A DNA stretch of 64,000 nucleotides from Parcubacteria group bacterium (GCA_041661275.1 JBAZUU010000003.1:25586-89585); one strand, 5' to 3'; shown: positions 23,175 through 48,034, numbered from the stretch's first letter. Notes: generated by a model not told the origin, from the sequence alone. Translations and numbers: made by a program.

Positions 23175-23273
23175 CAAGTTTAATAAAATTAATTGTATCC
23201 CTCATCCGTCTCCGACTATCCGTCGGAGCCACCTTCTCCCAGAGGGAGAAGGGGATTTGAAGGGACTGAATAT

Positions 23274-23429: not shown

Positions 23430-23473
23430 GTGAGTGTCCGCCTTCGCTCTTTTCGAGCTTCGGCGGGACGAAG

Positions 23474-23547
23474 GCGGGATTCGTACAGTGGTAGTACATC
23501 GGTCTCCAAAACCGACGACGTAGGTTCGATTCCTACATCCCGTGCCA
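23474..23547 (+). tRNA. tRNA-Trp (anticodon CCA, CCA end encoded)
   Basis: Acceptor gcgggat/atcccgt. D-arm gtac-agtggtag-tac. Anticodon stem-loop tcggt-ctccaaa-accga. T-arm gtagg-ttcgatt-cctac. Discriminator g, then cca. Confidence 0.8.
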
Positions 23548-25137: not shown

Positions 25138-25249
25138 ATGATTATTATAATAATTTATTACTGATATAATTTTACCAAAAACGATTAGTTAAATTACATT
25201 TCAGGAAAAATGTGAAAAATTTTTGGAAAATTTATTGATGTTTTCATTA

Positions 25250-26002: not shown

Positions 26003-26193
26003 ATTATTTTCATTTCCCGCCGCCTTTTTTGTAATAGCTTAAATTCCCGTTCCATCATCGGTTTATAAGTAAGCTCGACCTCACGTACAAGGCTTTCTGC
26101 CTGTTCGTGAGCCTCACTTAAATCAAGCTCCTTCCCGAGAAGCTCTCTATATAAAATCTGAAATTTTTTGATTTGTTTATCGGATAACGACAT
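25999..26193 (-). CDS. Small hypothetical protein (64 aa)
   Basis: ORF track. 4-nt overlap with the downstream gene. Confidence 0.35.
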   Translation of the reverse strand: MSLSDKQIKKFQILYRELLGKELDLSEAHEQAESLVREVELTYKPMMEREFKLLQKRRREMKII

Positions 26194-26311
26194 TTTTTGA
26201 AAATTAAAAATAGGCTATGTTTCAAGCCTACTTAAATTAAAAATGATTGTCGTTCTAGTCCGAGTGTTTCTTACATTTCTATGTGAATTTCTTAATACTT
26301 CTTAATGTTTC

Positions 26312-27001
26312 TTACTCGTCGATGTTTTTTAATTTTGCAATCCCTTCAGCAAGTTTATCTGGGTCTATGCTAAATTCTTCTATTTTATCTTTGGGAATGA
26401 AATTTCTAAATTTTACAGCATTCATTGAAACCTCAAAAAATAATTTCCGTATCTCATTGTTAAATCCAAGGTCGTTTAATATATGATGAAAGTCTTTTCC
26501 GATGGTCGCTTTCTCATTTTTTTCAATTTCATCCCTACGAATCAGTCTGTTGGGATTGCAAAAGACGTAGTTAAAAAAGTGGTCATTTTCTGACTCAAAG
26601 TTCGGCTTAGAAAGTTTATATTTATCATCCAGCGATATAGTTCTGTCTTCTTTGATGCTTATGTAATGACAATCCTTTTTGTTTATACGTCTTTCAAATT
26701 TTATTCCGTGTTCTTCACATAATTTGTCAAACCCAGGGCTTATTATTTTAATATCATACCAATTCGTTTTATTTTTATTTGCCTTTGCTCCATTTCTTGA
26801 TTTTTTTCTGCTCAAAATTTTTATAGCCTCAAAAACTTCTAAAACTTTTTCGACTATGTCTCTCTGGGTTTCTGGAAGTGGGTCTGTTTCTTGCGTATCA
26901 ATCTTGTACCACGTCCTGTCGCTTATTTTGGGATAATTTTCAAAATTATTTACAATTTTTTCAAGTACCCATTTTCTTTGTCGGGCTGATACTGAACTCA
27001 T
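26312..27001 (-). CDS. Hypothetical protein
   Basis: 229-aa ORF. No motif recognised. Confidence 0.45.
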   Translation of the reverse strand: MSSVSARQRKWVLEKIVNNFENYPKISDRTWYKIDTQETDPLPETQRDIVEKVLEVFEAIKILSRKKSRNGAKANKNKTNWYDIKIISPGFDKLCEEHGIKFERRINKKDCHYISIKEDRTISLDDKYKLSKPNFESENDHFFNYVFCNPNRLIRRDEIEKNEKATIGKDFHHILNDLGFNNEIRKLFFEVSMNAVKFRNFIPKDKIEEFSIDPDKLAEGIAKLKNIDE

Positions 27002-27269
27002 ATTTTTTATATTATTATTGATTCTTATATCCTTAACTTACCTCAAATCCGCCTTAAAATCAACTGAAAAACTTGATATTCTGGCTTTTTTGTAGTATCT
27101 TATAAGTGTTCACCTGCAGCAAATTTTTCGTGAGGAAAACTGCCTTTTCTATCCGATTACGGGTAGTAAGCGGCGGTCGAGTTCCATAATCGGACTTCCT
27201 CACGGATTGTCTGTTGTGGGTGAACGGCTCGGTCGTCGCTTTTTGTTTTGGCTAAATATTTATTTTAAT

Positions 27270-27842
27270 ATGATGAAAACTAAAATTCTGCCGATTATCA
27301 TTGGTTTAGGAATCGGAGTCGTAATATCTCCCGTCCTGGGAATGGCAATCAGCCCAACTAGAAATCTAATTATGAAACTGGCTCCCCAAGAAGCTATCTT
27401 GAGCTTGGCAGATAAAATCAAACAAAAGGAGACGAGCGAACAACAAAAATTAAGTTCTGAAGAAAAAGTCCAAGAAGTAATTCAGGAATCACAACCTGCA
27501 GAAAGTATTACGGAACCTCGACAGGAAATTATTCCCGCAGTTCAATCAGAAAACGACAAGGGACAGATAGAAGCCTGCCAAAATGCCAAAACCGAATGTG
27601 AGAAAAAAATAAAAAATATCAATAATGAAATAGATGATTTGGAAAACCAGGTCAAGGAGCAAGAAAAATTATATGGTGAAGCCAAAGAAAAGTATGGAAA
27701 CAGTACGAGCGACGGAGAGATAAAAATGTTGAAATATCGTGAGGCTATGTTGAAAAAATCAGAAGGAGATTTGAAATCCAGAAAGAAAGAGCTCCAGAAT
27801 ATCACTGGCGGAGAATGTAAAAATTATAATAAAACTTGTTAA
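27270..27842 (+). CDS. Membrane-anchored/secreted coiled-coil protein
   Basis: Start MMKTKILPIIIGLGIGVVISPVLG (TM/signal) within ORF-track ORF 27207. E/K-rich coiled coil. Confidence 0.45.
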   Translation: MMKTKILPIIIGLGIGVVISPVLGMAISPTRNLIMKLAPQEAILSLADKIKQKETSEQQKLSSEEKVQEVIQESQPAESITEPRQEIIPAVQSENDKGQIEACQNAKTECEKKIKNINNEIDDLENQVKEQEKLYGEAKEKYGNSTSDGEIKMLKYREAMLKKSEGDLKSRKKELQNITGGECKNYNKTC

Positions 27843-27846
27843 AAAA

Positions 27847-28239
27847 ATGAATCCACACTTTCAAAAAATAGGCGATGTTTTCCTAAATATTTCCAAAATT
27901 TGGGCTGGCGGGTGGGTTGTTATTATAGTCGCGTCTTTTCTAATAAATTCTGATAGCGATTTTATTCAAAATTTTTCGATACTGGATTTTTTCATTTTTT
28001 TAACCTTGGCATTTAGTCCATATATAATCATTAAAATAATAAAAATCGGGATGGAAAACAAAATAATAAATAACCAAGCAAAAAAGTATTGGCTGGTTTT
28101 AATTTTTATATTGATTTTTGGAGTTATTTTTTATTGGTTTGAATACCGACCAAGCCAGGCAAGAAAACAATGTTCCGCAAAATCATTCAGCGATAACTTA
28201 TATAAAAAATGTTTGCGGGAAAAGGGCTTGGAAAAATGA
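27847..28239 (+). CDS. Small multi-pass membrane protein
   Basis: 130 aa with three hydrophobic segments. Confidence 0.45.
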   Translation: MNPHFQKIGDVFLNISKIWAGGWVVIIVASFLINSDSDFIQNFSILDFFIFLTLAFSPYIIIKIIKIGMENKIINNQAKKYWLVLIFILIFGVIFYWFEYRPSQARKQCSAKSFSDNLYKKCLREKGLEK

Positions 28240-28694
28240 GCTATAAATCAAGCCAGTTTTACTTTTTATCTCTTTTGCTCTATATTTAAGGCACTTCACA
28301 AAGAAATCGAAACAAAGTATCCCGAAGGGAAGCGGACAGGAAACTGACCCAGAAGCCATATAAAATACCAGCGAGCATTAGTTCTTTTGTCGCCCTTGGC
28401 GAATAAGTCTCGCAGTATTTCCAATGAGAAGGTTGTCATCTTCTCACCGCACCGACCAAAAAGACGCTGGAAAGAATAATCCGCCGTAGGAGGAAAAATC
28501 TCAGCCTCGGGGTGTATCGAACGGTGCTAACATCCCCTAGACCAAGTAAAGGCCACTGCTTGTTTCGCAGAACAGTTCCATATCCTTACACGGGCAACCG
28601 TAGATGTAGGGTTATAGTTTATTTGTCCCAATTTAGCTTTTTGAGCTATATAGCTTTTTATACAGTTAATCCAATAAAGCCTTTGGCAACAAAA

Positions 28695-29402
28695 ATGCTT
28701 AGGAAAAAGCTATTAAGCAAAAAAGGGGCGATTTTGTCTCTTATTCTACTTTTTGGCATAATCGCAGTTATTTTTCTTTGGAATTATGAATTTAAGCCGG
28801 AAGAGAAACAGCAGATATGCCAACCGCTATTTTTGGAATACACCTTCGGCGATATTGATTCCCGCTTCAATCTGAAAAACGAAGAACTTATCGAAATGCT
28901 GAAAGACAGTGAGAAGATTTGGGAGGAACCGTTGGAATACGACGTTCTTCGCTACAATCCCGAAGCGTATTTTAAGATAAATTTTGTCTTTGACGAAAGA
29001 CAAGAATACGATATGCTCGAACAGGAATATTCCGAGCTTCAATATTCCCTCAATTTCTCGGAAAAAACCAAGAAAGAAACAGCAAAAATCCAAAAAGAAA
29101 TGGCTGTCATAGAAGCCAAGCAAGATTTGCTCTCCGATAAAATTTACAGCTCGGGAGAAAAATACGAGAAAGACGAAGCTTATACCCAGGGAGATTATAC
29201 GGGAAACTCCATCAATATTTATAATTTTGACGATAGGGATGAATTAGTAACGCTTCTCGCTCACGAGTTCGGGCACGCCTTGGAAGTTCCTGACAACCAA
29301 GACCCTGATTCGATTATGTGTGGGATTAACAGCGGACATTTTCGGCAGGCTACCCCAGATGATTTGGAAAAGGCGAAAGATTTTTGTGTAAGTTCAGAAT
29401 AG
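28695..29402 (+). CDS. Zincin-like metallopeptidase (HExxH) with N-terminal signal anchor
   Basis: HEFGHALEV...D..DSIMCG zinc-binding motif. Start at ATG 28695 (MLRKKLLSKKGAILSLILLFGIIAVIF); ORF track extends upstream to 28512. Confidence 0.5.
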   Translation: MLRKKLLSKKGAILSLILLFGIIAVIFLWNYEFKPEEKQQICQPLFLEYTFGDIDSRFNLKNEELIEMLKDSEKIWEEPLEYDVLRYNPEAYFKINFVFDERQEYDMLEQEYSELQYSLNFSEKTKKETAKIQKEMAVIEAKQDLLSDKIYSSGEKYEKDEAYTQGDYTGNSINIYNFDDRDELVTLLAHEFGHALEVPDNQDPDSIMCGINSGHFRQATPDDLEKAKDFCVSSE

Positions 29403-29449
29403 ATTTTTCGACATATAGCTTACAGTATTGAGAAATCTAAAAAAGTAAA

Positions 29450-30727
29450 ATGGACATACTTAGAAAGCCAATAAATTCATTTGGTCATAGCGATATAGTA
29501 TCTTTTTGTCAGGAAAAAAATCCTGAAGGTGTCCAGTTGGATTATAAGAAGGAACTTCCTCAAAGAGGCCTTGCTAAACATTTTGCCGCATTTTCAAATA
29601 CCAGAGGCGGTGTATTGATAATCGGGGTCGAGGAGGATAAAAAATCAGGATTTCCAGTTATGTGGGACGGAATCGAAGGAGATGCAAAAATGATTGAAAA
29701 AATTCACCAGGAAGCAAGTAATGTTGAGCCGATTCCTTCGTATGAAGTGCACGCTACCGATAAAATTGACGGCAGAAATTTTATTATTATTAGAATATTT
29801 GAAGGAGACAAAACTCCTTATTATGTCCAAAATGATTCTAATGTTTGGGTAAGGACTGGAAACATAAGTAATCCTATTGATATTGCCTCTCCAGATGGAT
29901 TGGAGTTGTTGTTTGGAAAAAAGGAAAAAGCTGAAAAGGCTAGAAATAATTTTTTACTGATAGGCAAGGAATTACACGAAGCGGCGATTGAGAAAGAAGA
30001 GAAAAAAATAAGAGAAGGATGGAAAAAAGAAATAGAAAAAGAAGGAGGTACGACTATTTTTAGATATGAAAAAATAATCGGAATTGATGATGCGATATGC
30101 AAAATAACACTACAGCCATATTTTCCAAGTAAATCACTTGTAGCTCCAAAAGAAATTAAAGACAATATTGATTCAATCCGCTTTAGAAATGGCAATTTTA
30201 CATTTCCGCAGTTAAATGTCGAGCCATCACCAAAAGGAATAAGATATTTTTCTTATCAAAGAAGCAGAGAAATACTTGAATCTCAGATAGTTCTTGGACA
30301 AGGACTAATTCAAAATATTTTTACAGTTTCAAGGAAAGGTCAGGATGAAGAACCTAGAATAATAAGCCTCCAAGCAATCGCCACTAGAGTTTTTGGAATA
30401 TTTAGATTTGCCGATAAATTCTACAATAAATACGGCTATCAGGGAGTGCTCATTGGAAGTATAGAAATAAGCGGGGCTGAAGATGCTCTAGCCAGAAGGA
30501 TAGTGCCATCGGGTATGGATTTTTGGGATAATGATAAAATAAAAGATAGCTTGCTGTCCGATTATTTATGGGAAATAAAAATTGATACAAGGATATTAAA
30601 AGAAAAGGATAAACTGAAAAAATATTACGAAGAAGTTCTGGAAGAAATTTATTGGGATTTTGGTTTTGAAGAATTTGGCGAAGGTGTTATTGATAAATTT
30701 TTTAAAGATAGCGGGTTCACATTCTGA
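29450..30727 (+). CDS. AlbA_2/Schlafen-like (divergent AAA, putative DNA-binding) domain protein
   Basis: N-terminus VQLDYKKELPQRGLAKHFAAFSNTRGGVLIIGVEED follows the AlbA_2 (PF04326) pattern E..lE.K......l.k.i.AfaN..GG.l.iGv.d. Confidence 0.5.
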   Translation: MDILRKPINSFGHSDIVSFCQEKNPEGVQLDYKKELPQRGLAKHFAAFSNTRGGVLIIGVEEDKKSGFPVMWDGIEGDAKMIEKIHQEASNVEPIPSYEVHATDKIDGRNFIIIRIFEGDKTPYYVQNDSNVWVRTGNISNPIDIASPDGLELLFGKKEKAEKARNNFLLIGKELHEAAIEKEEKKIREGWKKEIEKEGGTTIFRYEKIIGIDDAICKITLQPYFPSKSLVAPKEIKDNIDSIRFRNGNFTFPQLNVEPSPKGIRYFSYQRSREILESQIVLGQGLIQNIFTVSRKGQDEEPRIISLQAIATRVFGIFRFADKFYNKYGYQGVLIGSIEISGAEDALARRIVPSGMDFWDNDKIKDSLLSDYLWEIKIDTRILKEKDKLKKYYEEVLEEIYWDFGFEEFGEGVIDKFFKDSGFTF

Positions 30728-31006
30728 TGATTTATCAAGGTCAATTTCAGGGGGTAATTTTGGTTCATATTACATTTTTAATACCCACCTCTTCATAGAA
30801 GGGTTTGAAATCTTAATAGAATCTGGAATATCTGATAGCTAAACTCCAGATTATAATTTCCGCGAAAATGTTGACAAAATGCCGAAAGTGTTATACGATA
30901 GCACATCGGTTCTTTTTATTTCTATGCGGGCTATAAATGGCTGAAATCCATTAAAAATATAGGTGACTTCAACATCAGAAAAAAAACCAAAAGGAGGCAA
31001 GTAATT

Positions 31007-31885
31007 ATGAAATCCGTAAAAACAGTAATGATACTGGCGGAAGAAAAAAGGAAGCGTGCAGATGTTCTGGCTCAACAGGCCAAGGACATTTACACCGAAG
31101 TCAGTCAGGATTGGAACAACATTGCCCAACGTATCAGGGATGGAGAAACCTCGGGCGACCCGCTCAAGGATTTTATCGCCACAAGGTATTTCGCATTCGA
31201 CGAAAAAACCGAAGAGCGTTTCCGTGCCCTTCAAGCAAGGTTCAAGAATTTTCAAGGGCAATATGCAATGCTGGTGCGGGTAAGTAAGGAGAGGAGTCAC
31301 GCACATAGCGATAATTTCGTCGAAAAAACGGAGTTGAGCGTCGGTGTCCTCAGCGGAGACTCATTTATCCTTGACCCGCCTCAGGCACTGTTCTGGTTTC
31401 CTACGGGCGGTAAGAATGCCGTTTGCTACGACCGCTTCAATCAAAACCCCGTTTATATGCGTGAGGGCGACCTGACTCTTCCGCTCCTTGAAGATATGGG
31501 GCTCAAAACATCGTCTGAACTGCAAATCCTCATCGGAGACGAAGAAGTTGCTGGCTGGTTTGAGGAACAGCGTGGTGAAAATTATTTCAAGGTTTTTTGT
31601 GGCTTCAATGCAGTTCTGGGCAGGTCAGTGATACATCCCAGGCTCTCGGTCTATCTCAGCAAAAAACGGGACGAGTGGCTTAAGGAACACGACGCCTTGA
31701 AAGCCAAGAAGGTCTGGCTGGAAGCCGAGTGCAAGCGACTCAAGAAGCCAGGCGTAACCGACGGCAGTGTGGTCAAAATGGAAAAAGAAATTCAGGAAAT
31801 TCCCGAAAGGATAAAGGCCATCATCTCTGAGGCTTCTGGCTGGGGCGTCAATGACCTGGACTGGGAAAACGCCACCGCAGCCTAA
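31007..31885 (+). CDS. Hypothetical protein (gene 1 of a GC-rich three-gene cassette)
   Basis: 292-aa ORF. SD aaaaggagg before ATG. Promoter-like ttgaca-N17-tacgat at about 30873-30901. GC markedly higher than flanks. Confidence 0.5.
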   Translation: MKSVKTVMILAEEKRKRADVLAQQAKDIYTEVSQDWNNIAQRIRDGETSGDPLKDFIATRYFAFDEKTEERFRALQARFKNFQGQYAMLVRVSKERSHAHSDNFVEKTELSVGVLSGDSFILDPPQALFWFPTGGKNAVCYDRFNQNPVYMREGDLTLPLLEDMGLKTSSELQILIGDEEVAGWFEEQRGENYFKVFCGFNAVLGRSVIHPRLSVYLSKKRDEWLKEHDALKAKKVWLEAECKRLKKPGVTDGSVVKMEKEIQEIPERIKAIISEASGWGVNDLDWENATAA

Positions 31886-32101
31886 CGCAGTCCATTACAG
31901 CCCGTGTTTTTTGGAGAAGGAACACTACCGTTCCTTCTCCCCATTTCTAAGTTTGGCAGTAAATGGTAAATTTGGATGATGGATTAAATAAAGTTCTTTT
32001 TAGCGATATGACTTCGGGATGAAGTCATATAAAAAATTATTAACTCGATAGTAAGCGGGATGCTTCCTATCATAACCAGCTAAAAGCTGAAGGAGTTTGT
32101 G

Positions 32102-32662
32102 ATGAGCACTATGTCCGAAAAAAGAAGAGATGCGTTTTTTGAGGAATTTCCTTGGCTCAGCAAATATGTAAAGTTGAAACACAGGAAATATATCAGAAGC
32201 ATCAAGGTGTCCAGAGCGGATAAAGACTTACTCGGAAGAACTGCTTTGTCTGAGTTTATCGACAAAGGCGAGGACAGCTACTATATTTTCGAGCAACTCG
32301 TCCTTCTTGATGAAAATGGCGACATCCTAAAGCGAGAACTTCCCTCAGAGGATTTCAGTATCTGGAGACCTTGCACCTGGAGAAGGCATCGTTTCATTGT
32401 TGGCAGAGTAACCGAACCTCATACTGTTGCAGAATGTATTGTTAGTCTCGGTTCTGAATCTGAAAGGATTGCGTTTATCTTTTCTGTTTTCTGTAATAAC
32501 CTTGTAATCTACAAGCCTCCCAAGAAGTTTAATATTCAGACGCTTCTAGAAGAGGTTGAAGAAGATAAGAGACGGGAAGCGGAAGAAGAGAAGAAAAAAG
32601 AAGCAGAAATCTTTGATGCTCAAAAACAATCTATCCGAAAAGAATGGGAATCGCTGGATTAA
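32102..32662 (+). CDS. Hypothetical protein (gene 2 of the GC-rich cassette)
   Basis: SD aaggag then ATG 32102. K/E-rich C-terminus. Confidence 0.45.
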   Translation: MSTMSEKRRDAFFEEFPWLSKYVKLKHRKYIRSIKVSRADKDLLGRTALSEFIDKGEDSYYIFEQLVLLDENGDILKRELPSEDFSIWRPCTWRRHRFIVGRVTEPHTVAECIVSLGSESERIAFIFSVFCNNLVIYKPPKKFNIQTLLEEVEEDKRREAEEEKKKEAEIFDAQKQSIRKEWESLD

Positions 32663-32681
32663 CTAAAAAGGAGAACCTTCT

Positions 32682-33041
32682 ATGGTTGCCGAGACGTGGA
32701 CAGTTTCAACTGAGGACAAGCTCGGGTTTAGGATGTATCCTCTTCGGGACGAGAAACGCCAGTTTCCTGATATGGTGCCTGTGAGCATACACATTGGTAA
32801 GTTTTCCTGTCGTGGATATGTGCCCAGCGAAGAATACGACGGGCATTACGAGTCGCCGTATGCGGAACTCATCGTTAAATATGACAGTTCCGAAAGGATG
32901 CAACCCGACCTGACCAAGTGGAATTTCCAGAAGATGTCCTGCTGGCTGACAAAGGACGCTGTAGCCTATTCGCTCTATATCAAGAAGCAGAAATTGGAGC
33001 GGTTACGAACTTACCTGCGAAATTCCTGCAGGCTTCCGTAA
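32682..33041 (+). CDS. Hypothetical protein (gene 3 of the GC-rich cassette)
   Basis: 119-aa ORF 19 nt after gene 2. SD aaaaggag. Confidence 0.45.
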   Translation: MVAETWTVSTEDKLGFRMYPLRDEKRQFPDMVPVSIHIGKFSCRGYVPSEEYDGHYESPYAELIVKYDSSERMQPDLTKWNFQKMSCWLTKDAVAYSLYIKKQKLERLRTYLRNSCRLP

Positions 33042-33070
33042 CAGCATCTTTCAGACAATCATTGACCAAA

Positions 33071-33110
33071 AGGCGGCACAGAGAACCATATTCTGCACCG
33101 CCTTTTTCTT
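33071..33110 (+). terminator. Rho-independent terminator closing the GC-rich cassette
   Basis: ggcggcacagagaaccatattctgcaccgcc hairpin followed by tttttctttt. Confidence 0.5.
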
Positions 33111-33148
33111 TTGAACGAAAAAAATTAAAAATTTTTATCTAGAAAGTT

Positions 33149-33200
33149 TTTAGAAGTATTTCTGGCTATGTCTCATTTTTATCCCCCCTCCCTCTTGTTA
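33149..33200 (-). pseudogene. 5' gene remnant A (SD GGGAGGGGGG plus ATG, ORF MRHSQKYF*), paralogous to remnant B
   Basis: Minus-strand ATG at 33173-33175 preceded by gggagggggg. About 85% nt identity with 36222-36272. Confidence 0.4.
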
Positions 33201-33225
33201 GGGGTTTGTGTTATAATTTGCTTGT

Positions 33226-34210
33226 GATGCTATCATTAGAAACTAAAACTAAAGAAATAATCGACAGTCTAGTCCGACTAGCTAGGGAAGTAGAAATTTG
33301 CAATGGAATGGGCTTTTTTGATGGCAATAAATGTGCCGAAGATTTTTTTAAGGGCATTTTGAACCGTGTTTATGACTGCAATCTTATCAATCTTAATTTG
33401 GAAAAAAATAATTTTCCAGCAGTTGACTTAGGCGATAAATCCAAGAGATTAGCAATTCAAGTTACAGCGAGCACGGGGAGAGCAAAAATTTCAAATTCTA
33501 TAACGAAATTTGTAAATCATAACCTCTACGAAACTTATAAAAAGCCAATATTCTTAATCATTGGAAAAAAGCCAAAATATTCCAAAAATTTCGATGCCGA
33601 CACGGAGGGAAAATTTATTTTCAACCCTTCTGAAGATATTTTAGATATTACCGATTTAATAAAAATAATTTCTTCTTTACCCGTTGAAAAAATCACAGAC
33701 CTTAATGAGTTTATTATTTCTAATGTTACCGACGTATTATCTATTGACCCGATTAAAATTAACGAGCAGGATATTAAAAATTTAATTCTAGGCATAAGAG
33801 ATGCTATAAATGACGATACCTCGTTTAAACAAAAATATTCCAGTGATATTCCGATGAGATTCCAGGATTATATTGTAGAAAAAAATAAACTAAACGAGAT
33901 AGATAAATTGTTTTTTGAACAGGTGTTCGCTAGAAGTCTCGCGTATAGCGATGATATTAAGAATTTTTTATCCGACCCCATAAACGCAGAGATAAAAGAG
34001 TGGTATTTTACTATTAGTAGTGAACTTCAGAATGAATATATAAAAAATAGAGATAATTTCGATTTGTTGGAATTTATAGACAAGATTTATGATAAGGTCT
34101 GTAGAAAATTTAAGGCGGATTTGTCATATGACAAAAGAAAAATTAAGGTAATGCTTCATTGTATGTATTTTCATTGTGATTTAGGAATAAATCCAGAGGA
34201 AAAAACATAA
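33226..34210 (+). CDS. Putative effector with SMEK-like/restriction-endonuclease-fold N-terminal domain (candidate ABC-3C C-component)
   Basis: Motif NFPAVDLGDKSKRLAIQVTASTG (D...QVT, PD-(D/E)xK-like). ATG 33226 preceded by tataat at 33211. ORF track begins at TTG 33206. Confidence 0.4.
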
Positions 34211-34452
34211 TGATAACACCAAATAAATATACAAATTTAGACTTATCAGTCTTGAATATCGGGGCTGAAATTGTTAAGGTGCTTCAGAAAAGCAGTCTTC
34301 TTAAATATGATGACCTGTTAAATCAGATTCTGCTAAAGAAGGGGAGGGGGGCGAAAGAAATTTTTGTCTATTCTTTAAATTTTTTATTTGTTCTGAATAT
34401 AATTAAATACCATAGTTCTGAGGATATAATCGAATTTTATGAAACTCGTTAA
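34210..34452 (+). CDS. Small protein (80 aa), candidate ABC-3C middle component
   Basis: Start overlaps the upstream stop (TAATG). Its end overlaps the downstream ATPase by 14 nt. Confidence 0.4.
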   Translation: MITPNKYTNLDLSVLNIGAEIVKVLQKSSLLKYDDLLNQILLKKGRGAKEIFVYSLNFLFVLNIIKYHSSEDIIEFYETR

Positions 34453-36199
34453 GATATATTCTAATATTTCCAGTATGAAGCCAGTTATTTTTAATTCTGG
34501 CTTAAATATAATATACGGCGATGTAAGTCAATATGAAGGAGACAGCAATGAGCATAATTTAGGAAAAACTTCGCTTGTCTACCTGATAGATTTTTTGTTA
34601 TTAAAAAAAATAGATAAAAATAATATATTTAGGAAAAGAAGGAGTAATTTCTTAGGCTGGGATTTTTATTTGGAAGTAGAGCTGGATGATAAATCATACC
34701 TTACGATTAAAAGAAATCTGGTTAATGATTCCAGAATATCAATTAAGCTTCATAAGGAAGGAAATCAGGACTTGTCGTCGGAGGTGTTTTGGGACTATAA
34801 AGATAAATCAATAAGTGCGAAAAAAGAAGAGGAAAATGCGGTTAAGATTTTGAAAAATATATTGAAATTCGATGTCTTAAGCGAATATAATTTGAGGCAT
34901 TTTCTTTCCTATCTTCTAAGAACCCAAAATGATTATGCGGATGTTTTTAGATTAAGCACGTTCAAAAAAGACAAAAACTGGAAGCCACCCCTTCTTTCTC
35001 TATTTGGATATAACGGACAACTATTTGAGAAGAAGTATGATTTAGAGCAGGAAATTTCTATCCGTAGAGAATTGATTGCAAAAATGAAGTCGGATAATCT
35101 CATAGAGAAATCAGAGGAAGCTTTCAAATTACAAGCTGCCATTAAGGCTAGGGAGGATGAAAAGAAATCAATAGAAAAAAATCTTGAAATGCTCAATTTT
35201 TTTACCAGGGATGAACAAATGACGGAAAAAATAGTGAAAGAATTTGAGACAAAAATTAGTATCCTAAATTCTGAGGAATATAGCCTAAAATACGAGGTCG
35301 ACAAGATTAATAAATCATTGGAAAATAATGTTTCCGTTAAAGTTTCTGATGTTAAAAAGATATATGAAGAGGTGGAAATATTTTTTCCAGATAAGCTTAC
35401 TAAATCTTATGAGGAATTAGCCAATTTTAATAAGCAAATTTCAGACGAGAGGTCAAAATACCTAAAAAAAGAATTGGACAATCTGAATGATAGGCTGATG
35501 ATTATTAAAAAAGACCTCAAGGAATATAATGATAAGTTATCAGAAGCCTTATCGATAATAAAGGAGAAAGATGCATTTATAAAATTTAGGAAATATCAAA
35601 ATGAGCTTATAAAAATAGAAACAGACATTGCCATATATAAACAAAAAATTGAGAGTATAGACACTATAGAAAATTATAGTAATGCGATTAGCGAGATAAG
35701 AGAAAAATCCAAAGAAATATCCTCAATAATTAAGGGGGATTTGGCGGAAGAAAAAAATCCATTGCAAGAAATACGTGAGATGTACACTGAGATTTTTAGA
35801 AAAACTATGGATGGAACTGCTACTTTCGCAATAACTCCAAATAAATATGGTTATTTTGATTTTGAGCCGTTTGTAATAAGCGGCGGTGATTTAACAGGGC
35901 AGGGAGATGGATACACCGCTACAAAAGTTCAATGTGCCGCGTTTGTTATAGCGGCATTGGCTTACTATTCAAAAAATTCTTTTTATAAATTTGCCTATCA
36001 CGATGGCATTTTTGAGGGCTGGGGAGATAATCCTAAGATAAATTTTATCAATCTAATTAGGGAATATTGTGATAAATATAAAATTCAGTATATCGCAAGT
36101 ATGATAAAAAGTGATATTCCCAAAAACTTTGATTTTGAAAAAGAAGAAATAATAATTACTTTAGACAAAAACCAGCCATTATTTGGTATCAAATTTTGA
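34439..36199 (+). CDS. SMC/ABC-type ATPase with long coiled-coil insert (candidate ABC-3C ATPase)
   Basis: N-terminal head KLVKIYSNISSMKPVIFNSGLNIIYGDV...NLGKTSLVYL (RecF/SMC-like Walker A). Roughly 230-aa heptad-rich coiled coil. C-terminal head with FAYHDGIFEGWGD (Walker B/D-loop-like). Confidence 0.5.
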   Translation: MKLVKIYSNISSMKPVIFNSGLNIIYGDVSQYEGDSNEHNLGKTSLVYLIDFLLLKKIDKNNIFRKRRSNFLGWDFYLEVELDDKSYLTIKRNLVNDSRISIKLHKEGNQDLSSEVFWDYKDKSISAKKEEENAVKILKNILKFDVLSEYNLRHFLSYLLRTQNDYADVFRLSTFKKDKNWKPPLLSLFGYNGQLFEKKYDLEQEISIRRELIAKMKSDNLIEKSEEAFKLQAAIKAREDEKKSIEKNLEMLNFFTRDEQMTEKIVKEFETKISILNSEEYSLKYEVDKINKSLENNVSVKVSDVKKIYEEVEIFFPDKLTKSYEELANFNKQISDERSKYLKKELDNLNDRLMIIKKDLKEYNDKLSEALSIIKEKDAFIKFRKYQNELIKIETDIAIYKQKIESIDTIENYSNAISEIREKSKEISSIIKGDLAEEKNPLQEIREMYTEIFRKTMDGTATFAITPNKYGYFDFEPFVISGGDLTGQGDGYTATKVQCAAFVIAALAYYSKNSFYKFAYHDGIFEGWGDNPKINFINLIREYCDKYKIQYIASMIKSDIPKNFDFEKEEIIITLDKNQPLFGIKF

Positions 36200-36203
36200 T
36201 TTT

Positions 36204-36272
36204 TTAAATAAGAGGTTTCAGGAAGGATTTCTGGCTAAGCCTCATATTTTAGACCCCCTCCCCCCATTCGGC
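36204..36272 (-). pseudogene. 5' gene remnant B (SD GGGGGGAGGGGG plus ATG, ORF MRLSQKSFLKPLI*), paralogous to remnant A
   Basis: Minus-strand ATG at 36243-36245. Peptide MRLSQKSF vs MRHSQKYF in A. Confidence 0.4.
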
Positions 36273-36325
36273 GGGTTTGGAGTCAGCTTTTTATAAAAAA
36301 TATAATAGTGGGTAGGGGATAGCGA

Positions 36326-36517
36326 TTACTGATGATTTTTTCTTAGGTCAGGTATGTAAATATACTCTTTTTTGTTCTCAAAGATAGTTATGACTTCCTC
36401 TACAACTGCGTGCCAGTCAAAACAAGGCTTATTTAGGCCTTGTTTTTGTATGGGGGTGGTAGGATGTTCGAACTGGCCGGCAAGCCGTTGACTTATGGCT
36501 GATTTTATGCAAGTATA
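36326..36517 (-). pseudogene. 3' gene remnant C1 (63 codons, no start; ends ...WHAVVEEVITIFENKKEYIYIPDLRKNHQ*)
   Basis: Codon-by-codon minus-strand translation from stop at 36326-36328 up to the in-frame stop at 36518-36520. Paralogous to 37980-38087. Confidence 0.45.
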
Positions 36518-36606
36518 TTAAGTCATAGCTCTTTTACAGGCAAAAAGCAGGCTACAGGCAGTAGCCAGAATTGCACCGGCTGATTATCAGAAAAAGGAGA
36601 ATAGGC

Positions 36607-37221
36607 ATGCAGGCGAGAATTAAAGGCTTTGTAGTAGGAGCCGACAGACCCTTTGAGGGTGGCGTCAGAGGCAAAAAGGTTTGGAAAGTCCGAGTCAAGG
36701 ATGAAAGTCACGAAGACAACGGCAAAAAGTTTGAGGTTGCCGAAGGCCATTGGAAGAGATTTTTTTCCAAAGGGCTTGATGTGACATTTGAACTCGGAAA
36801 TTTCCAGGAAGGCGGACAGGCAGTTCGCAAAGCTATCAATGTCAAGTTGTTAGACAACAAAACGGAAGCAAAGGAGCTTCCAATGGAAAAAGCGAAAATT
36901 GTCCAAGACCCTGACACTCTGTACGTGCTTATCACGGAATGTCGCGGCGAACTCAGCGTCTACTTCACTGGCTTTGAGACCGAGGAAGAAGCGGTTGCAT
37001 TTTTTATCAAGGAAACTGGCGAGAATGAAGCGGATTCGGAAAAGGTTGTTTGTTTTATTCCCTTCAATATCTATGATTGGACAGAAGACGCTCTTGATCC
37101 TGATATTGTAAATGGATTCGCGGTCGTTCGTTCTCTCGTAGGTATTACTTCCGCTCAGGAAGCCTTGGAAAAAATGATGACTGTTATTCTCAGGTCTTTT
37201 GCTACCAGAAAGGAAGAATAA
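36607..37221 (+). CDS. Hypothetical protein (gene 1 of a two-gene cassette)
   Basis: SD aaaaaggagaatagg then ATG 36607 (MQARIKGF...). ORF track starts at 36571. Confidence 0.45.
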   Translation: MQARIKGFVVGADRPFEGGVRGKKVWKVRVKDESHEDNGKKFEVAEGHWKRFFSKGLDVTFELGNFQEGGQAVRKAINVKLLDNKTEAKELPMEKAKIVQDPDTLYVLITECRGELSVYFTGFETEEEAVAFFIKETGENEADSEKVVCFIPFNIYDWTEDALDPDIVNGFAVVRSLVGITSAQEALEKMMTVILRSFATRKEE

Positions 37222-37222
37222 C

Positions 37223-37891
37223 ATGCGTATTCTGGTCATTGACGATACTCAGGGACATCTCGATGCGGCTCGACAAACTCTTTCAGGGCACGACCTTACT
37301 CTTTGCTCTTCTCATGACGAAGCTGTTAAGCTTCTCCTTTGGAAATACGATGATAATGAGAAGAGTCAAAGAATCAAGCAATATGAATCAGAAGGTCTGA
37401 AGTGGACTGATGCCTACGAAAAGGCGGAACAGGAAACAAGATTGCCCTATTGGGAGGTCGTTCTTTGTGACCTGCTCATGCCTGCTGGTAGCAGAGAACA
37501 GGGTTCGGGTCGTCATTTAGTTGGTCAAGAAATGGCTGTTGGTTGGTCACTCGCTTTGCAGGCAGTAAAAAACGGTGCCAACTATGTAGCCGTGATTACT
37601 GAATTAAATCATCACCAACATCCTGCTAGTGCCATGATTGATAAAATCAATGGGCACATTTTCACCATTGACAATGCTAAAATGCTCATGACCAATTACG
37701 TCGAAACCGTTGGTATTAAGGGTACCGAGGGTAAATGTATTGAATGCGGTGGTACTGGCAAGCACAGAAAGTGGGGATATGAAGATAATTGCCACTTCTG
37801 CAAAAACGGCATCGACTTTTTGGTAAAGGGCAAGGATTGGGGTAAGATTCTCAACCTGCTTCTCACAGGAAAAAGCATCGATGACGAATAA
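37223..37891 (+). CDS. REC (CheY-like receiver)-like domain protein with C-terminal zinc ribbon
   Basis: MRILVIDD start and VVLCDLLMP (phospho-acceptor-like D). C-terminus CIECGGTGKHRKWGYEDNCHFCKNG. Confidence 0.4.
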   Translation: MRILVIDDTQGHLDAARQTLSGHDLTLCSSHDEAVKLLLWKYDDNEKSQRIKQYESEGLKWTDAYEKAEQETRLPYWEVVLCDLLMPAGSREQGSGRHLVGQEMAVGWSLALQAVKNGANYVAVITELNHHQHPASAMIDKINGHIFTIDNAKMLMTNYVETVGIKGTEGKCIECGGTGKHRKWGYEDNCHFCKNGIDFLVKGKDWGKILNLLLTGKSIDDE

Positions 37892-37892
37892 T

Positions 37893-37955
37893 AGTGTGGA
37901 CTGAGCAGACCTACTGCTCCTGCCAAGGCGAACGCTTTGGCAGTTTTTTATTTAT
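37893..37955 (+). terminator. Tandem hairpins plus T-run after the two-gene cassette
   Basis: ctgccaaggcgaacgctttggcag followed by ttttttatt. Confidence 0.45.
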
Positions 37956-37979
37956 ATAGTGAGCGACACAGTGGGGTAG

Positions 37980-38087
37980 CTATACATTTAAACTCAAATC
38001 AGGAATATAAATATACTCTTTTTTATTCTCAAAAATAGTTCTAACGTCCTTTACTAAGGCGTGCAAATATCCTAAAAATGGCTCTAA
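37980..38087 (-). pseudogene. 3' gene remnant C2 (35 codons; ...LEPFLGYLHALVKDVRTIFENKKEYIYIPDLSLNV*)
   Basis: Minus-strand translation. In-frame stop immediately upstream. The C-terminal 20 aa match C1. Confidence 0.45.
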
Positions 38088-38180
38088 TTAGCCATTTTTT
38101 GTTGGGTAGGCACGCAGCTGGGGTTATGTTAGGCTAAAAACGTGAAAATACCATATTTATTCTTCTTTTTCACGGTTATG

Positions 38181-38209
38181 TTGACAAAAACGTGAAAAAA
38201 GAGTATAAT
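38181..38209 (+). promoter_or_regulatory. Perfect sigma-70 consensus promoter TTGACA-N17-TATAAT with flanking aaaacgtgaaaa direct repeats
   Basis: ttgaca 38181-38186 and tataat 38204-38209. Two copies of aaaacgtgaaaa at 38138 and 38187. Confidence 0.6.
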
Positions 38210-38217
38210 TGTAATAT

Positions 38218-39105
38218 ATGACAAAAACACTCAATGTCTACAATAAAATAAGTTTTCTTCGTGAAAGATATTATAAAGCGTCTATTGGTAAAGAAGCGCT
38301 TATTAAACTTATTGCTGAAACTGAAATTGCCGAGCAGGTATATAACTCGAATGCAATAGAAAACAGCACGCTCACGCTTGAAGAAACTGAAAAAATACTC
38401 CTTCAAATTGATCTGGACAGATATATAACTGAACGAGAAATTTTTGAGGCTAAAAATCTAGCGAGAGTCGTGTCGTATATTAGCAAGAGGGCCAAGGAAC
38501 AAGAGCTTGCTCTTGAGGTGATTTTGTCGCTACACAAGATGCTGATTTCTAATATTCGTGATGATATTGCGGGAAGATTCAGGCGTGACAATGAATTTGT
38601 TCGAGTTGGAAATTATATCGCTCCTGGTCCGCAAGAAGTGTTGGGTCGTCTTGAAAAAATGTTAAATGAATATAACGCGGAAAGTCATGAAAATATTATC
38701 AAACGCATAGCAAGATTACATCTTGCTTTTGAGCATATTCACCCTTTCTGCGATGGTAATGGACGAATCGGGCGAGTAATTAATAATTATTTGCTGATGC
38801 GAGAGGGATTTGTTCCAATAAACATAAAATTTATTGATAGAAAAAAATATTACGAAGCATTTAAAGAATTTGACGTGAAAGGCGCGACTGCTGTCATGGA
38901 GGAAATTGTAGGAAAGGCGTTGACCAATAGTTATTACAAGCGTTTGGCCTATTTGGAGGGAAAGGAAATTATCACCCTGGCTGATTATGCGAAAAAGAAT
39001 AAAATTTCTCACTCGAATCTTATTAATAAAGCAGGAAGACAAACTATCGAAGCTTTTTTAGAAAAAGGAATTTGGAAGATTGGCGTCGATCATAACGGAA
39101 AATAA
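38218..39105 (+). CDS. Fic family protein (AMPylase/Fido domain)
   Basis: HPFCDGNGRIGR is the Fic motif HPFx(D/E)GNGR. Confidence 0.8.
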   Translation: MTKTLNVYNKISFLRERYYKASIGKEALIKLIAETEIAEQVYNSNAIENSTLTLEETEKILLQIDLDRYITEREIFEAKNLARVVSYISKRAKEQELALEVILSLHKMLISNIRDDIAGRFRRDNEFVRVGNYIAPGPQEVLGRLEKMLNEYNAESHENIIKRIARLHLAFEHIHPFCDGNGRIGRVINNYLLMREGFVPINIKFIDRKKYYEAFKEFDVKGATAVMEEIVGKALTNSYYKRLAYLEGKEIITLADYAKKNKISHSNLINKAGRQTIEAFLEKGIWKIGVDHNGK

Positions 39106-39289
39106 TTAATATTTGCGTGATTGATGGTTAAATCTATCCCATCAACGCCATTGCGCGCTCCTTTTTTACCTCAATTCGATCCCAATTTTCCAAAATATTG
39201 TTTCTAGTCGTATCTACTAGCCCGTGCGAAATTTGCTAAAATAGCCGTTAGATTATAAAATAGAGCCAAGGGAAGAACCCCTTGGTTTT

Positions 39290-41092
39290 TTGTTGAAAAA
39301 TATGATTAGCAGAAATTCGAAAAAAGATAATACTGTCCAATTTGATTTTCGTCAATTTTGGATCAAACTCTGGAGGCTTTTGGTTCCGGCGCACGGCAAA
39401 ATAATAAAGTTTGTCATTTTTGTCGTGGTTTTGGAAATTTCCAGGATGGCCGGGCCGTATATTTTAAAATACATAATCGACCTTATCACTAATTTTCAAG
39501 CGGAAAAGATTGGCCAGATGATCGGGCTCATCGCTCTGATGTTTGTGGCTAATCAAGCGGTGTCTATAATGAACTTTTTTTCTGACAGAAGGATTTTTGA
39601 TATTCTCATTACCGTCGAATCATATCTTTCTGACATATCATTTAAAAAATTAGTCTTTCTTGATTTGGGCTATCACGAACGGGAGAATAGCGGAAATAAG
39701 GTGTATAAGATCCAAAAAGGGATTACCAAGATCGATGAGATGATCAGCAGTTTTTCCTGGGAGGTCATTCCGACAAGTATTCAAGTTGTCGTAACTACAG
39801 TTGTCCTCTTTTTCATTAATTGGCGATTTGGAGTGACCATTTTGGTTTTTGTGCCGATATTTTTGTGGTTATCTTTGATTGTAAACAGCACTAATTATTT
39901 AACCAGAAAAAAACGACATGATTTGCAGGAAGACGCGGCCGGATTTATGGCTCAATCGATTGTTAATATAAATACGGTTCAATCATTTGTCCAGGAAAAG
40001 CGGGAGAGGAAAAATTTTCGCGGTATGATGGATCGGGTCTTTGAAATGATTCTTTGGGAATATGGTCGGTATATGAAATATAATCTTTGGCGCAACCTGG
40101 TGATTGACCTTGGGAGAGCGTCCATGTTGCTTTTTAGCATCTATCTTGTGTGGAATAACTCTATTACGGTAGGCAGTATGATATTTGTTTTCACAATTTC
40201 TGAAAAAGCATTAATTTCTCTTTATCGCATCTCGAGGATTTATGACAAAATCATGGAAGCAGGGGAGTCGGTAGTAAGAGTCGATGATTTATTTCAGGAA
40301 AAAGAAGATATTTTCAATAATCCGAAAGGAATTAGACCTAAGGAAATGGAAGGTGCTATCGAATTCAAGCAAGTGGATTTTTCCTACAGGAGTAGCGATA
40401 TTAAGGCATTGGAAAATGTTAGTTTTAAAATCACTTCCGGTTCAGTAACGGCTTTAGTTGGACCATCGGGTGGAGGGAAAACTACTGTTGCCAGGATGGT
40501 TTATCGACACTATGACCCTCAGGAAGGTCAAGTGTTTTTGGATGGTAAGGACTTGAGGGAATATGACCTCTTTTCTTTTCGAAAATTTTTTGCCATTGTT
40601 CCGCAGGAAGTAGAGATATTTAACACATCAGTAAGAGATAATATTTCTTATGCCAAGCCGAGTGCCAGCATGAAAGAAATTGTGGCAGCGGCGCGCATAG
40701 CTAATGCAGAGGAATTTATTTTGAAGTTAAGGGAAGGCTATGATACAGTGGTTGGAGAGCGCGGGGTAAAATTATCCGGCGGACAAAGGCAGAGAATTGG
40801 GATTGCCCGGGCGGTACTGGCTAATCCACGAGTTTTAATCTTTGATGAAGCGACATCCAACCTGGATTCATACTCAGAAAAACTAATTCAGGAGGCGCTG
40901 GATAAAATTGAGAAGGGTCGGACAGTGATAATCATTGCCCACCGCTTAAGTACCATCAAAAAGGCGGATAAGATAATTGTTTTGGAAAATGGAAGAGTGG
41001 TGGAAGAGGGGAGTCACATTGAACTTTCCCGTGAGGAGAAGGGACTTTATCATAAACTTCTGGAGTTACAGAGAATGGGGGATGTGGAGTAG
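39290..41092 (+). CDS. ABC transporter permease/ATP-binding protein (type I exporter, MsbA-like)
   Basis: Six-TM N-terminal domain. NBD with Walker A GPSGGGKTT, signature LSGGQRQRIGIARAV and Walker B ILIFDEATS. Confidence 0.85.
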   Translation: MLKNMISRNSKKDNTVQFDFRQFWIKLWRLLVPAHGKIIKFVIFVVVLEISRMAGPYILKYIIDLITNFQAEKIGQMIGLIALMFVANQAVSIMNFFSDRRIFDILITVESYLSDISFKKLVFLDLGYHERENSGNKVYKIQKGITKIDEMISSFSWEVIPTSIQVVVTTVVLFFINWRFGVTILVFVPIFLWLSLIVNSTNYLTRKKRHDLQEDAAGFMAQSIVNINTVQSFVQEKRERKNFRGMMDRVFEMILWEYGRYMKYNLWRNLVIDLGRASMLLFSIYLVWNNSITVGSMIFVFTISEKALISLYRISRIYDKIMEAGESVVRVDDLFQEKEDIFNNPKGIRPKEMEGAIEFKQVDFSYRSSDIKALENVSFKITSGSVTALVGPSGGGKTTVARMVYRHYDPQEGQVFLDGKDLREYDLFSFRKFFAIVPQEVEIFNTSVRDNISYAKPSASMKEIVAAARIANAEEFILKLREGYDTVVGERGVKLSGGQRQRIGIARAVLANPRVLIFDEATSNLDSYSEKLIQEALDKIEKGRTVIIIAHRLSTIKKADKIIVLENGRVVEEGSHIELSREEKGLYHKLLELQRMGDVE

Positions 41093-47875: not shown

Positions 47876-48034
47876 GACTCTCTCCTTGTTTATAGGTAGT
47901 AGGAACTATTGAAATGCGATAAAAAATGATCTTTCGACTTTTGCTCAATGTATCACCGCTTGGAAAAAGTGTCAAACGAGACAATCCGTGGTTATGATAA
48001 TTTTAATTTTCTTACGGTTCATAGCCTTGCTTAT

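Follow-up and report, generated by a model that had tools for sequence, protein, structure and literature searches.

Among the integrative elements described so far, those with SSV1-type 'suicidal' integrases (SSV1, pTN3, and pT26-2) are among the closest to the locus presented here. In these elements, the attachment site attP lies in the open reading frame (ORF) of the integrase, and the gene is partitioned at a tRNA gene. Repeated integrations leave integrase fragments in the chromosome, which has been termed 'gene capture', and self-disrupting recombinases were stated to be exclusively archaeal (PMC8371274). In the present work, a 64,000-nt stretch of DNA from a Parcubacteria group bacterium (GCA_041661275.1, JBAZUU010000003.1:25586-89585), hereafter the window, was analyzed. 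It contains an island located downstream of a tRNA-Trp gene, with a gene for a large serine recombinase (LSR) at its left end and two families of short repeats, A and B, between its other genes. We propose that the B repeats are displaced 3' ends of LSR genes that were split at the tRNA gene. A self-splitting serine integrase would be a design previously described only for tyrosine integrases, and it appears to be widespread in Patescibacteria. No report of a bacterial serine integrase of this kind was found in the literature searched, the coverage of which was incomplete.

As in the SSV1-type elements, attP would be located within the ORF, the target is a tRNA gene, and the two parts of the gene are found at opposite ends of the element. 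In contrast, the SSV1-type enzymes are tyrosine recombinases (PF16795) of archaea, whereas the enzyme described here is a serine recombinase of Patescibacteria. Moreover, the SSV1-type split separates the catalytic domain, whereas here only the last ~30 residues, past all recognised domains, are lost. Another integrase ORF that runs across attP is that of IntP from the myxophage Mx8, the C-terminus of which is changed on integration (Tojo et al. 1996, as cited in PMC4383910). IntP, which is found in one phage lineage, is a tyrosine recombinase, and no arrays of displaced tails are mentioned in the accessible part of PMC4383910.

The serine integrases of phiC31, Bxb1, and A118, as well as SprA of SPbeta, resemble the enzyme described here in having the same domain set with a coiled coil, short attachment sites, and the integrase gene at the edge of the element. 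To our knowledge, canonical large serine integrases have attP outside the integrase gene and target protein-coding genes. The use of tRNA genes by serine integrases was stated as not reported (PMC4383910). In a survey from 2020, 14 of 297 serine candidates were found at tRNA genes, which was called unreported and unproven (PMC7192596). Stacking of elements at a tRNA gene is known from the tycheposons of Prochlorococcus, in which successive integrations at one tRNA gene push older elements inward, giving islands of degenerate elements separated by partial tRNA copies (bioRxiv 10.1101/2020.12.28.424599). Tycheposons are mostly equipped with tyrosine recombinases and their scars are tRNA fragments, whereas the scars described here are integrase tails.

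The B repeats were detected as two direct copies of 79 nt with 78% identity (36335-36413 and 37986-38064, repeat finder), and a 33-nt B consensus matched the window twice and none of 100 shuffled sequences. The initial annotation, made from the sequence alone, had reported one pair of A and one pair of B repeats; both pairs proved to be real and non-random in repeat-finder and consensus searches, and each has a third copy (A0 and B3) that had not been listed. It had read B as the last 30-60 codons, with no start codon, of paralogous genes on the minus strand. Our results agree with 3' ends of paralogous minus-strand genes that differ in nucleotides and protein and bear a coding signature. All seven changes between B1 and B2 within the 15-codon core TIFENKKEYIYIPDL are synonymous, which shows that the two copies diverged as coding sequence. 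The lengths had been overestimated, as B1 and B2 comprise 27-29 codons (27-31 for B1-B3), and the lack of a start codon holds for B1 only, since B2 has a TTG with AGGA upstream.

When the B peptides were used as queries in a protein search, the only matches were 13 short called ORFs, which are alike in their last ~25 residues and have unrelated N-termini. On the contigs of these ORFs, B is placed antisense between cargo genes of one orientation, and two of the contigs are syntenic with the window but carry different cargo. In a scan of one genome per species with a degenerate codon pattern, 106 stretches matched, almost all of them in Patescibacteria (Nealson-, Morani-, Saccharibacteria, Berkel-, Jorgensen-, Yanofsky-, Doudna-, Curtissbacteria, and others); tails are present in more than 100 genomes across many lineages of this group. 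The matches in Flavobacteriia (L029 and L038; compared loci and contigs are numbered L, and recombinase homologues from the protein search P) look like chance and were excluded. The apparent abundance of B matches near contig ends is partly an artefact of the fixed 8-kb blocks into which the genome loci were cut, although some true contig-end cases stay.

Most B copies have an in-frame stop 0-40 codons upstream, and in a few cases B forms the genuine end of a long ORF. The clearest case, in L048, codes for a protein of 519 residues with LSR domains, which starts with MNKAVILARVSTAKQ and ends with ...SRSQWLTIVDNVRTIIQRQNEYIYIPDLRPAILASQ. This protein and the homologues P0019, P0132, and P0022 consist of Resolvase, Recombinase, and Zn_ribbon domains followed by B-type or B3-type tails. 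The tail of P0019 (MHAIVKDVRTLFIENDKYIYIP...) is identical to B2 at 15 of 22 positions, and that of P0132 reads WLRTVNNVRNKIQQYNGTIYIPDLRAYNKL. Such long ORFs ending in B indicate that B is the C-terminal tail of an LSR family, and LSRs are thus the intact homologues of the genes to which the remnants belong. P0022 is a relative with 72% identity to the window LSR, and its tail (MHGAMDTTRNNILENWDRIDV...) is identical to B3 at 21 of 29 positions (E = 1e-13), which allowed us to recognise B3 as the third tail in the window.

B might instead be a stand-alone gene for a peptide of 28-31 residues, or a small RNA that extends from the upstream TATAAT box to the hairpin. The TTG start of B2 with its upstream AGGA, the ORFs of 31-83 amino acids called over B in metagenomes, and the -10-like box and terminator hairpin that bracket B on the plus strand would fit such a gene. 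However, the codon before the tail is mostly TGG and sometimes TAG, neither of which is a start, the N-termini of the called ORFs are unrelated, and B is the in-frame end of recombinases of 519-569 residues. Rfam was searched with gathering thresholds for the window and with E <= 1 for 36150-36500, and only the four tRNAs and a chance miRNA were returned. With tblastn, the B peptide matched nothing in plasmid or phage collections, and pattern scans of viral contigs found neither A nor B; hence, the elements give no indication of being recognised phages. We consider a separate small gene highly improbable.

The alignment of 113 non-identical tails revealed that the information content is zero upstream and rises abruptly at one Trp codon; at the other end, conservation stops just after the Leu of IPDL. 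Homology to LSR within 1.8 kb upstream was detected in only 3 of 120 tail copies. A nucleotide model without a coding assumption recovered 142 tails, and 13 of the 18 that are off the codon pattern keep the frame open. These data bear on the explanation given in the initial annotation, namely an ancestral tandem array of minus-strand genes, the bodies of which were deleted or replaced by cassettes, so that random 5' stubs (A) and 3' stubs (B) were left. The coding signature of B, the differences between its copies in nucleotides and protein, and the position of cassettes between B copies are in agreement with such an array. On the other hand, random deletion would give stubs of varying length, whereas in ~113 tails the 5' edge falls at the same codon, more than 95% of the tails have no recombinase homology upstream, and the resident LSR loses its homology at the same codon, at the tRNA gene. 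As for A, no intact gene starting with MR(H/L)SQK was present among 5.8 billion proteins. The array therefore appears very unlikely. The initial annotation had stated that it would fall if the repeats proved to be the ends of one known insertion sequence or integron-like element, and by this test the B repeats are ends of integrative elements.

The window LSR contains the PF00239 (9e-21), PF07508, and PF13408 domains, and the same set is found in the tail-bearing relatives. Its C-terminus reads ...KSEQLSSLITR-W-H-G-M followed by a stop, and the ~30-residue tail of intact members is missing. Read on the opposite strand, its last five codons, TGG CAC GGG ATG TAG, correspond to the tRNA-Trp end CCCGTGCCA, with the Trp codon TGG complementary to the tRNA CCA; the ORF continues for three more codons into the tRNA gene. 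B1 opens with TGG CAC GCA and is read W-H-A-V-V-E-E; that is, the family homology of the resident LSR is lost at the same Trp codon at which the tails begin. With the window LSR as query, more than 4,152 homologous proteins were found (more than 4,000 at E <= 1e-20), and the best 120 of them, with 57-85% identity to the window LSR, were classified by C-terminus. After the Trp or Met codon, 72 of these 120 showed the antisense signature of the tRNA T-arm ([ED]SN), for example, WHGWRESNPR, WQGRKESNPQ, or WLGRQDSNLR. A stop within six residues was found in 40 (for example, HGV, QGR, or LPG), and a ~30-residue tail matching B1/B2 or B3 in eight. The family tail is thus lost at one codon, with the ORF running into or stopping in antisense tRNA, in 112 of the best 120 homologues. 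The same break codon in the tails and in the resident LSR, located at the end of a tRNA gene, points to site-specific splitting at an internal attP.

In P0016, P0028, P0039, P0064, and P0065, 60-70 residues follow the break, and the whole antisense tRNA and more is translated. The annotated C-termini of these integrases are therefore artefacts of the integration junction, and tRNA read-through would likewise account for the C-termini of many such recombinases in databases. The triplets formed by the break codon and the next two residues (P0014-P0133) fall into the classes WQG (27), WLR (23), WHG (22), WLP (20), and WLG (9), which suggests subfamilies aimed at different tRNAs, with WHG corresponding to tRNA-Trp in this case. 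The edge of the commonest tail type, TGGCTCCGC, matches a tRNA-Asn-like end, GCGGAGCCA, in antisense, and three tails of the TGGCTCCGC type follow tRNA-Asn in L103.

On these grounds, it is quite probable that each B repeat represents the attR-side tail of a serine integrase that splits its own gene on insertion at the 3' end of a tRNA gene. The attP site would most likely be located inside the 3' end of the LSR's own gene, with the crossover in the core CGTGC, which overlaps the conserved Trp codon (a Met codon in relatives). Integration would join the LSR body to the end of the tRNA gene, and the ORF would then finish in antisense tRNA. The last ~30 codons would be moved to the far end of the element, where they would abut the former downstream flank of the tRNA gene as a B repeat. 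The island downstream of tRNA-Trp would accordingly represent a stack of integrative elements, each inserted by an LSR of this design. E1 would keep its LSR body and pair with B1, and B2 and B3 would be the tails of older units that are now devoid of an LSR body. Excision of E1 would rebuild an LSR of 558 residues ending with ...LSSLITRWHAVVEEVITIFENKKEYIYIPDLRKNHQ. The predicted attP junction (23548 joined to 36415) is ...CTCTACAACTGCGTGCCAACGTGTAATCAGCGAGC..., and the predicted empty attB (23547 joined to 36416) is ...CTACATCCCGTGCCAGTCAAAACAAGGC....

The length of 558 residues obtained by joining the LSR body and B1 compares with 554-569 residues in intact members. The break falls at residue 530, and all Pfam domains are located before residue 340. 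The split spares the catalytic domain, so that inactivation of the SSV1 type, by separation of that domain, does not apply here. The truncated protein may well stay active, because the loss is confined to ~30 residues located beyond the last recognised domain. A short TACA...TGTA dyad of weak symmetry in the reconstructed attP is centred on the TG of CGTGC, the core in which we infer the crossover dinucleotide to lie. A perfect hairpin with a T-run was found inside the LSR coding sequence (Table 1). It starts ~10 nt past the core and the tRNA CCA, and its T-run is the antisense of the lysine codons of NKVK. An equivalent coding-sequence hairpin is present beside tRNA-Trp in L116, L119, and L121, and the motif K-x-K-[ST]-E-x-L-x-S is kept across the 120 homologues. 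This hairpin probably replaces the terminator of tRNA-Trp after integration.

Related elements were sought by a metagenome scan and contig look-ups, and it is their comparison that reveals, at the sequence level, the split of the gene, the tRNA target, and the element boundaries. The layout of tRNA-Trp, LSR body with HTH gene, different cargo, A-B, and flank is common to the window, L119 (metagenome source ERZ795055), L116 (ERZ795059), and L121 (ERZ15186021). In all four elements, CGTGC is present at both ends (the tRNA end and the tail edge), the LSR body and the tail occupy opposite ends, and ARAGORN and Rfam identify an intact tRNA-Trp gene directly adjoining the LSR gene. The order of the backbone genes beside the recombinase recurs in L120 and L121. 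Between the window and L121, identity is 91% over A2-B1, and homology ends at 36421, right after the B1 core; L113/L119 diverge from the window just after B1.

On the plus strand of each B copy, the core CGTGC is followed by a terminator-type hairpin. The flank of tRNA-Trp in L120 aligned with the B flank of L119 at 58 of 63 positions, with a score of 82 (shuffle maximum 31), and the tRNA-Trp flank of L036 with the B flank of L001 at 36 of 38 positions, with a score of 54 (shuffle maximum 27). The flanks of B1 and B2 in the window match this tRNA-flank module more weakly. That of B1 scored 29 against the L120 tRNA flank and 38 against the L036 B flank (shuffle maximum 22 each), and that of B2 scored 31 against a shuffle maximum of 26. 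The resemblance of the sequence to the right of the tail to a tRNA flank fits the former downstream flank of the tRNA gene that is predicted by the logic of the empty site. The hairpin beside B1 was also considered as a possible last fragment of an older, deleted LSR body; the frame upstream of it (…FEHPTTPIQKQGLNKPCFD) showed no convincing similarity to the …LEP…NKxKxExLxSL… motif of the LSR family.

The sequence of tRNA-Trp common to B1 and B2 is limited to 5-7 nt (CGTGC[CA]). A tRNA-Trp-like core, CCCGTGC, lies beside B3 at the right edge of the island, where the edge reads CTACTAGCCCGTGC and the tRNA CTACATCCCGTGC. We also considered tRNA mimicry, in which ~20 nt of T-arm and acceptor stem would be reproduced in the first tail codons and attR would serve as a second attB; the alignment scores did not exceed those of shuffled sequences in any of the six pairs, and this candidate was rejected. 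In L001, which is syntenic and has no recombinase, a second tRNA-Trp 3' end, TCTCTCATCCCGTGC, was observed ~190 nt downstream of the gene (11250-11560, reverse strand), which resembles a scar left by an insertion that was almost completely deleted.

A conserved non-coding box is located just downstream of the recombinase stop, with copies next to B1 and B2. It recurs after many tails across the candidate phyla radiation (loci L010-L115), 10-25 nt past the recombinase stop. On the tail strand, the box reads TTACCCCACCCCGCTACTCACTAT, and its reverse complement is ATAGTGAGTAGCGGGGTGGGGTAA. It may act as an outward -10 promoter or as a protein-binding site. In L015, the box directly follows tRNA-Trp.

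At least two tails were present in 18 of 113 loci, each of up to 8 kb. Neighbouring tails were co-oriented in all 22 pairs, with a spacing of 0.3-4.6 kb, and in all six multi-tail loci with a tRNA gene, the tails faced the 3' end of this gene, which was encoded on the other strand. L103, with its three tails after tRNA-Asn, and L093, with two after tRNA-Trp, are examples. Such arrays could also arise if the tails were reusable recombination sites, so that LSR-less units, consisting of a tRNA-type flank, cargo, and a tail, are mobilised in trans. The resident LSR would then excise with any downstream tail, gaining or dropping cassettes and acquiring a new C-terminus each time. The common co-oriented arrays fit this possibility, as do the open frames of 13 of the 18 tails off the strict pattern and the fact that E2, E3, and a unit in L120 are small, LSR-less, and open with a module resembling the tRNA flank. 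In L120, this unit, with one 322-residue gene, lies between a seemingly unoccupied tRNA-Trp and the LSR body, and its tail completes the neighbouring LSR ORF, giving an apparently intact, tail-bearing integrase (4141-5280) at 1 kb from a tRNA-Trp with a native-type flank. However, recombination by canonical LSRs is restricted to attP with attB or attL with attR, circular cassettes were not observed, and open frames could mean recent integration. In addition, the tail arm has no significant resemblance to the tRNA arm, so attR is no obvious second attB. We regard reusable tails as a possible but doubtful explanation.

Several observations weigh against the split-gene model itself. All of its support comes from the comparison of assemblies, many of which are metagenome-assembled genomes. 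Outside the core, the similarity of the tail arm to the tRNA arm did not exceed that of shuffled sequences, which counts here as well. The window has three tails and one LSR body, and L001 has a tail without any LSR; therefore, loss of older LSR bodies must be assumed, and the manner of this loss we can only infer. The layout of L120 needs a non-canonical event, with integration at a junction of tail and flank and not at the tRNA gene. The pairing of the resident LSR with B1 specifically is based on position and on the boundaries in L119 and L121, and not on sequence, and B3 resembles the tail of P0022; we consider this pairing fairly likely. Finally, the role of the A module remains a proposal.

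The A pair was detected by the repeat finder at 33122-33180 and 36191-36249 (59 nt, 73% identity), and the 19-nt core ATTTCTGGCTAWGYCTCAT matched the window twice, with 0.05 matches expected. The initial annotation had given ~85% identity over 45 nt; the repeat itself was reproduced, but this value proved too high, with identities over these 45 nt of ~70% ungapped and ~78-80% with one gap. On the minus strand, we found the reported Shine-Dalgarno-like run and ATG, together with the peptides MRHSQKYF and MRLSQKSFLKPLI, each followed by a stop. They do not appear to be gene starts: the minus-strand ORFs of the A copies vary between 8 and 23 codons, and a search with the concatenated A peptides against the 5.8 billion proteins gave one candidate and none at E <= 10. 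The A family is ~110 nt long and was found in close relatives only, with three copies in the window, two in L119, two in L121 (one of them weak), and one each in L116 and L001. Every copy is on the cargo strand, directly past the stop of a cargo operon. The last A copy of the element adjoins the tail in the window, L119, and L121, and is ~380-840 nt away from it in L116/L005 and L001. Each copy comprises a conserved GTTTYAGGRAGKATTTCTGGCTAWGYCTCAT, followed by CCCCCTCCC, a short G/C hairpin that varies from copy to copy, and TTTG. The 3' part of A1 carries TGTTATAAT, the -10 box of the ABC-3C trio. When seven A copies were folded together with RNAalifold, neither a consensus structure nor a conserved bulged hairpin emerged, and A had no match in Rfam. 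A thus seems to be a clade-restricted non-coding module at the 3' ends of cargo operons.

In comparison with L113/L119, the window has an extra segment, 30757-33174, which corresponds to the GC-rich operon. The single A copy of L113 aligns with A0 on the left and with A1 on the right, so that the indel ends within A copies. The identity of E1 to L119 is mosaic, rising from 74-79% in the backbone and the Schlafen gene to 91% between 33175 and the B1 core; consecutive segments of the alignment with L121 show 79%, 87%, and 91% identity. The indel ends and identity breaks in A indicate that A marks the joints of cargo-module exchange. Together with the end of homology at the B1 core, they uphold the view of the initial annotation that the repeats lie at the boundaries of exchangeable units in a hotspot. 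The A copies are probably recombination joints and weak terminators. The joints could be made by homologous recombination between A copies of 70-90% identity, and a site-specific process is also conceivable. Eroded copies of the box and tail were looked for after A0 and A1, as marks of former element ends; the local alignments were no better than those of shuffled sequences, and this candidate was rejected.

Cargo of the same orientation separated by short conserved elements also recalls integron cassettes with attC-like sites or the ends of insertion sequences, and integron arrays share with the island the co-oriented cargo and the short conserved sites beside a site-specific recombinase gene. 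Integrons, however, have IntI, attI, and attC hairpins, none of which is present here, and the sites are the recombinase's own coding sequence. The Pfam scan of the island detected no tyrosine recombinase, including the IntI type, and no transposase; B codes for part of a serine recombinase, the A alignment lacks a conserved bulged hairpin, and the repeat finder detected no terminal inverted repeats. An origin of the repeats as integron sites or insertion-sequence ends is extremely unlikely.

Table 1. Features of the island and its surroundings (positions in the window)
Feature	Position	Strand	Evidence or remark
tRNA-Thr, tRNA-Tyr, tRNA-Thr, tRNA-Trp cluster	22404-23547		ARAGORN, Rfam
tRNA-Trp with encoded CCA (23545-23547)	23474-23547	+	ARAGORN, Rfam; integration target
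CGTGCCA, tRNA-Trp 3' end	23541-23547		sequence; common core at attL
LSR body, 534 residues (Resolvase, Recombinase, Zn ribbon)	23533-25137	-	Pfam
Hairpin AGCGAGC-TTAATT-GCTCGCT with T-run, inside LSR coding sequence (codons SEQLSSL)	23558-23582	+	sequence
Proposed unit E1	23548-36415		LSR body, backbone, cargo, B1
Conserved element backbone: HTH_36 protein (25250-26002), 64-residue ORF (25999-26193), 229-residue ORF (26312-27001)	25250-27001	-	Pfam
E1 cargo	27207-36199	+	Pfam; synteny
Two ORFs without assigned family, first in E1 cargo		+	
M10-like peptidase	28512-29402	+	Pfam
Schlafen/AlbA_2	29450-30727	+	Pfam
A0, just after Schlafen/AlbA_2 gene	30718-30828	+	nhmmer E = 9.5e-16; alignment
GC-rich operon	31007-33041	+	missing from L113/L119
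A1, after GC-rich operon	33118-33229	+	repeat finder; alignment; nhmmer
A1 hairpin	33189-33204		scored terminator-like
ABC-3C trio	33206-36199	+	Pfam; synteny
A2, after DUF2326 gene, directly beside B1	36187-36299	+	repeat finder; alignment; nhmmer
Conserved non-coding box (ATATAATAGTGGGTAGGGGATAGCG)	36300-36324	+	just downstream of recombinase stop
B1, recombinase tail WHAVVEEVITIFENKKEYIYIPDLRKNHQ and stop	36326-36415	-	translation; consensus search
B1 core CGTGCCA	36409-36415		identical to tRNA-Trp end; proposed attR of E1
Proposed unit E2	36416-38066		hairpin flank, two genes, B2
Hairpin with T-run flanking B1	36419-36448	+	like sequence downstream of tRNA-Trp in relatives
Cargo of older units	36607-39105	+	
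Two-gene cassette	36607-37891	+	no Pfam match
Second box copy	37953-37980	+	upstream of B2 on plus strand
B2, recombinase tail (L)HALVKDVRTIFENKKEYIYIPDLSLNV and stop	37980-38066	-	translation; consensus search
B2 core CGTGCAA	38060-38066		putative attR-type scar of older unit E2
Proposed unit E3	38067-39229		hairpin flank, Fic, B3
Hairpin with T-run flanking B2	38075-38101	+	homologous to L120 native tRNA-Trp flank and L119 B flank
Fic	38218-39105	+	Pfam
B3, diverged recombinase tail (S)HGLVDTTRNNILENWDRIEVKKERAMALMG and stop	39134-39229	-	similarity to P0022 tail
B3 core CGTGC in CTACTAGCCCGTGC	39223-39227		right edge of whole island
Hairpin terminator after B3	39266-39291	+	just before conserved ABC transporter gene

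As shown in Table 1, the island carries one LSR body and three tails. The region is closed by the genes of an ABC transporter and an aminoacyl-tRNA synthetase, and the ABC transporter gene is also the island border in L001 and L005. A perfect TTGACA-17-TATAAT promoter was observed at 38181-38220. Its end lies 8 nt from the Fic start codon (ATG), implying that the Fic mRNA is leaderless or nearly so. Promoter copies similar to this one are located at 18041 and 60234 (repeat family D6, repeat finder).

If the split-gene model is correct, the statements that serine integrases have no tRNA targets (PMC4383910 and PMC7192596) and that integrases with an attachment site in their own gene are archaeal only (PMC8371274) would have to be revised. 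The model also offers a rule for delimiting islands in poorly annotated, reduced genomes: an LSR ORF running into an antisense tRNA would mark one end of an element, and an orphan tail of ~75 nt the other. Many such islands have defence cargo, represented here by Schlafen/AlbA_2, the ABC-3C system, and Fic. The swap of the C-terminal tail on integration could be a built-in switch of directionality, and serine integrases are used as genome-engineering tools. Were the tails reusable, they would constitute an integron-like device for gene capture, made from the recombinase's own coding sequence and widespread in Patescibacteria.

Further repeats were noted in the window outside the island. The direct repeats 49458-49595 and 55424-55561 (138 nt, 85% identity) and 48034-48101 and 55399-55466 (68 nt, 72% identity), the latter with a promoter-like TTGAC...TATAAT followed by ATGCAGGAA, could be paralogous gene starts. 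Tandem repeats of 27-33 nt were found at 46080-46408, in a GC-rich stretch (51%) within an ORF of 443 residues (45783-47114), which suggests a repetitive protein rich in Gly, Ser, and Gln.

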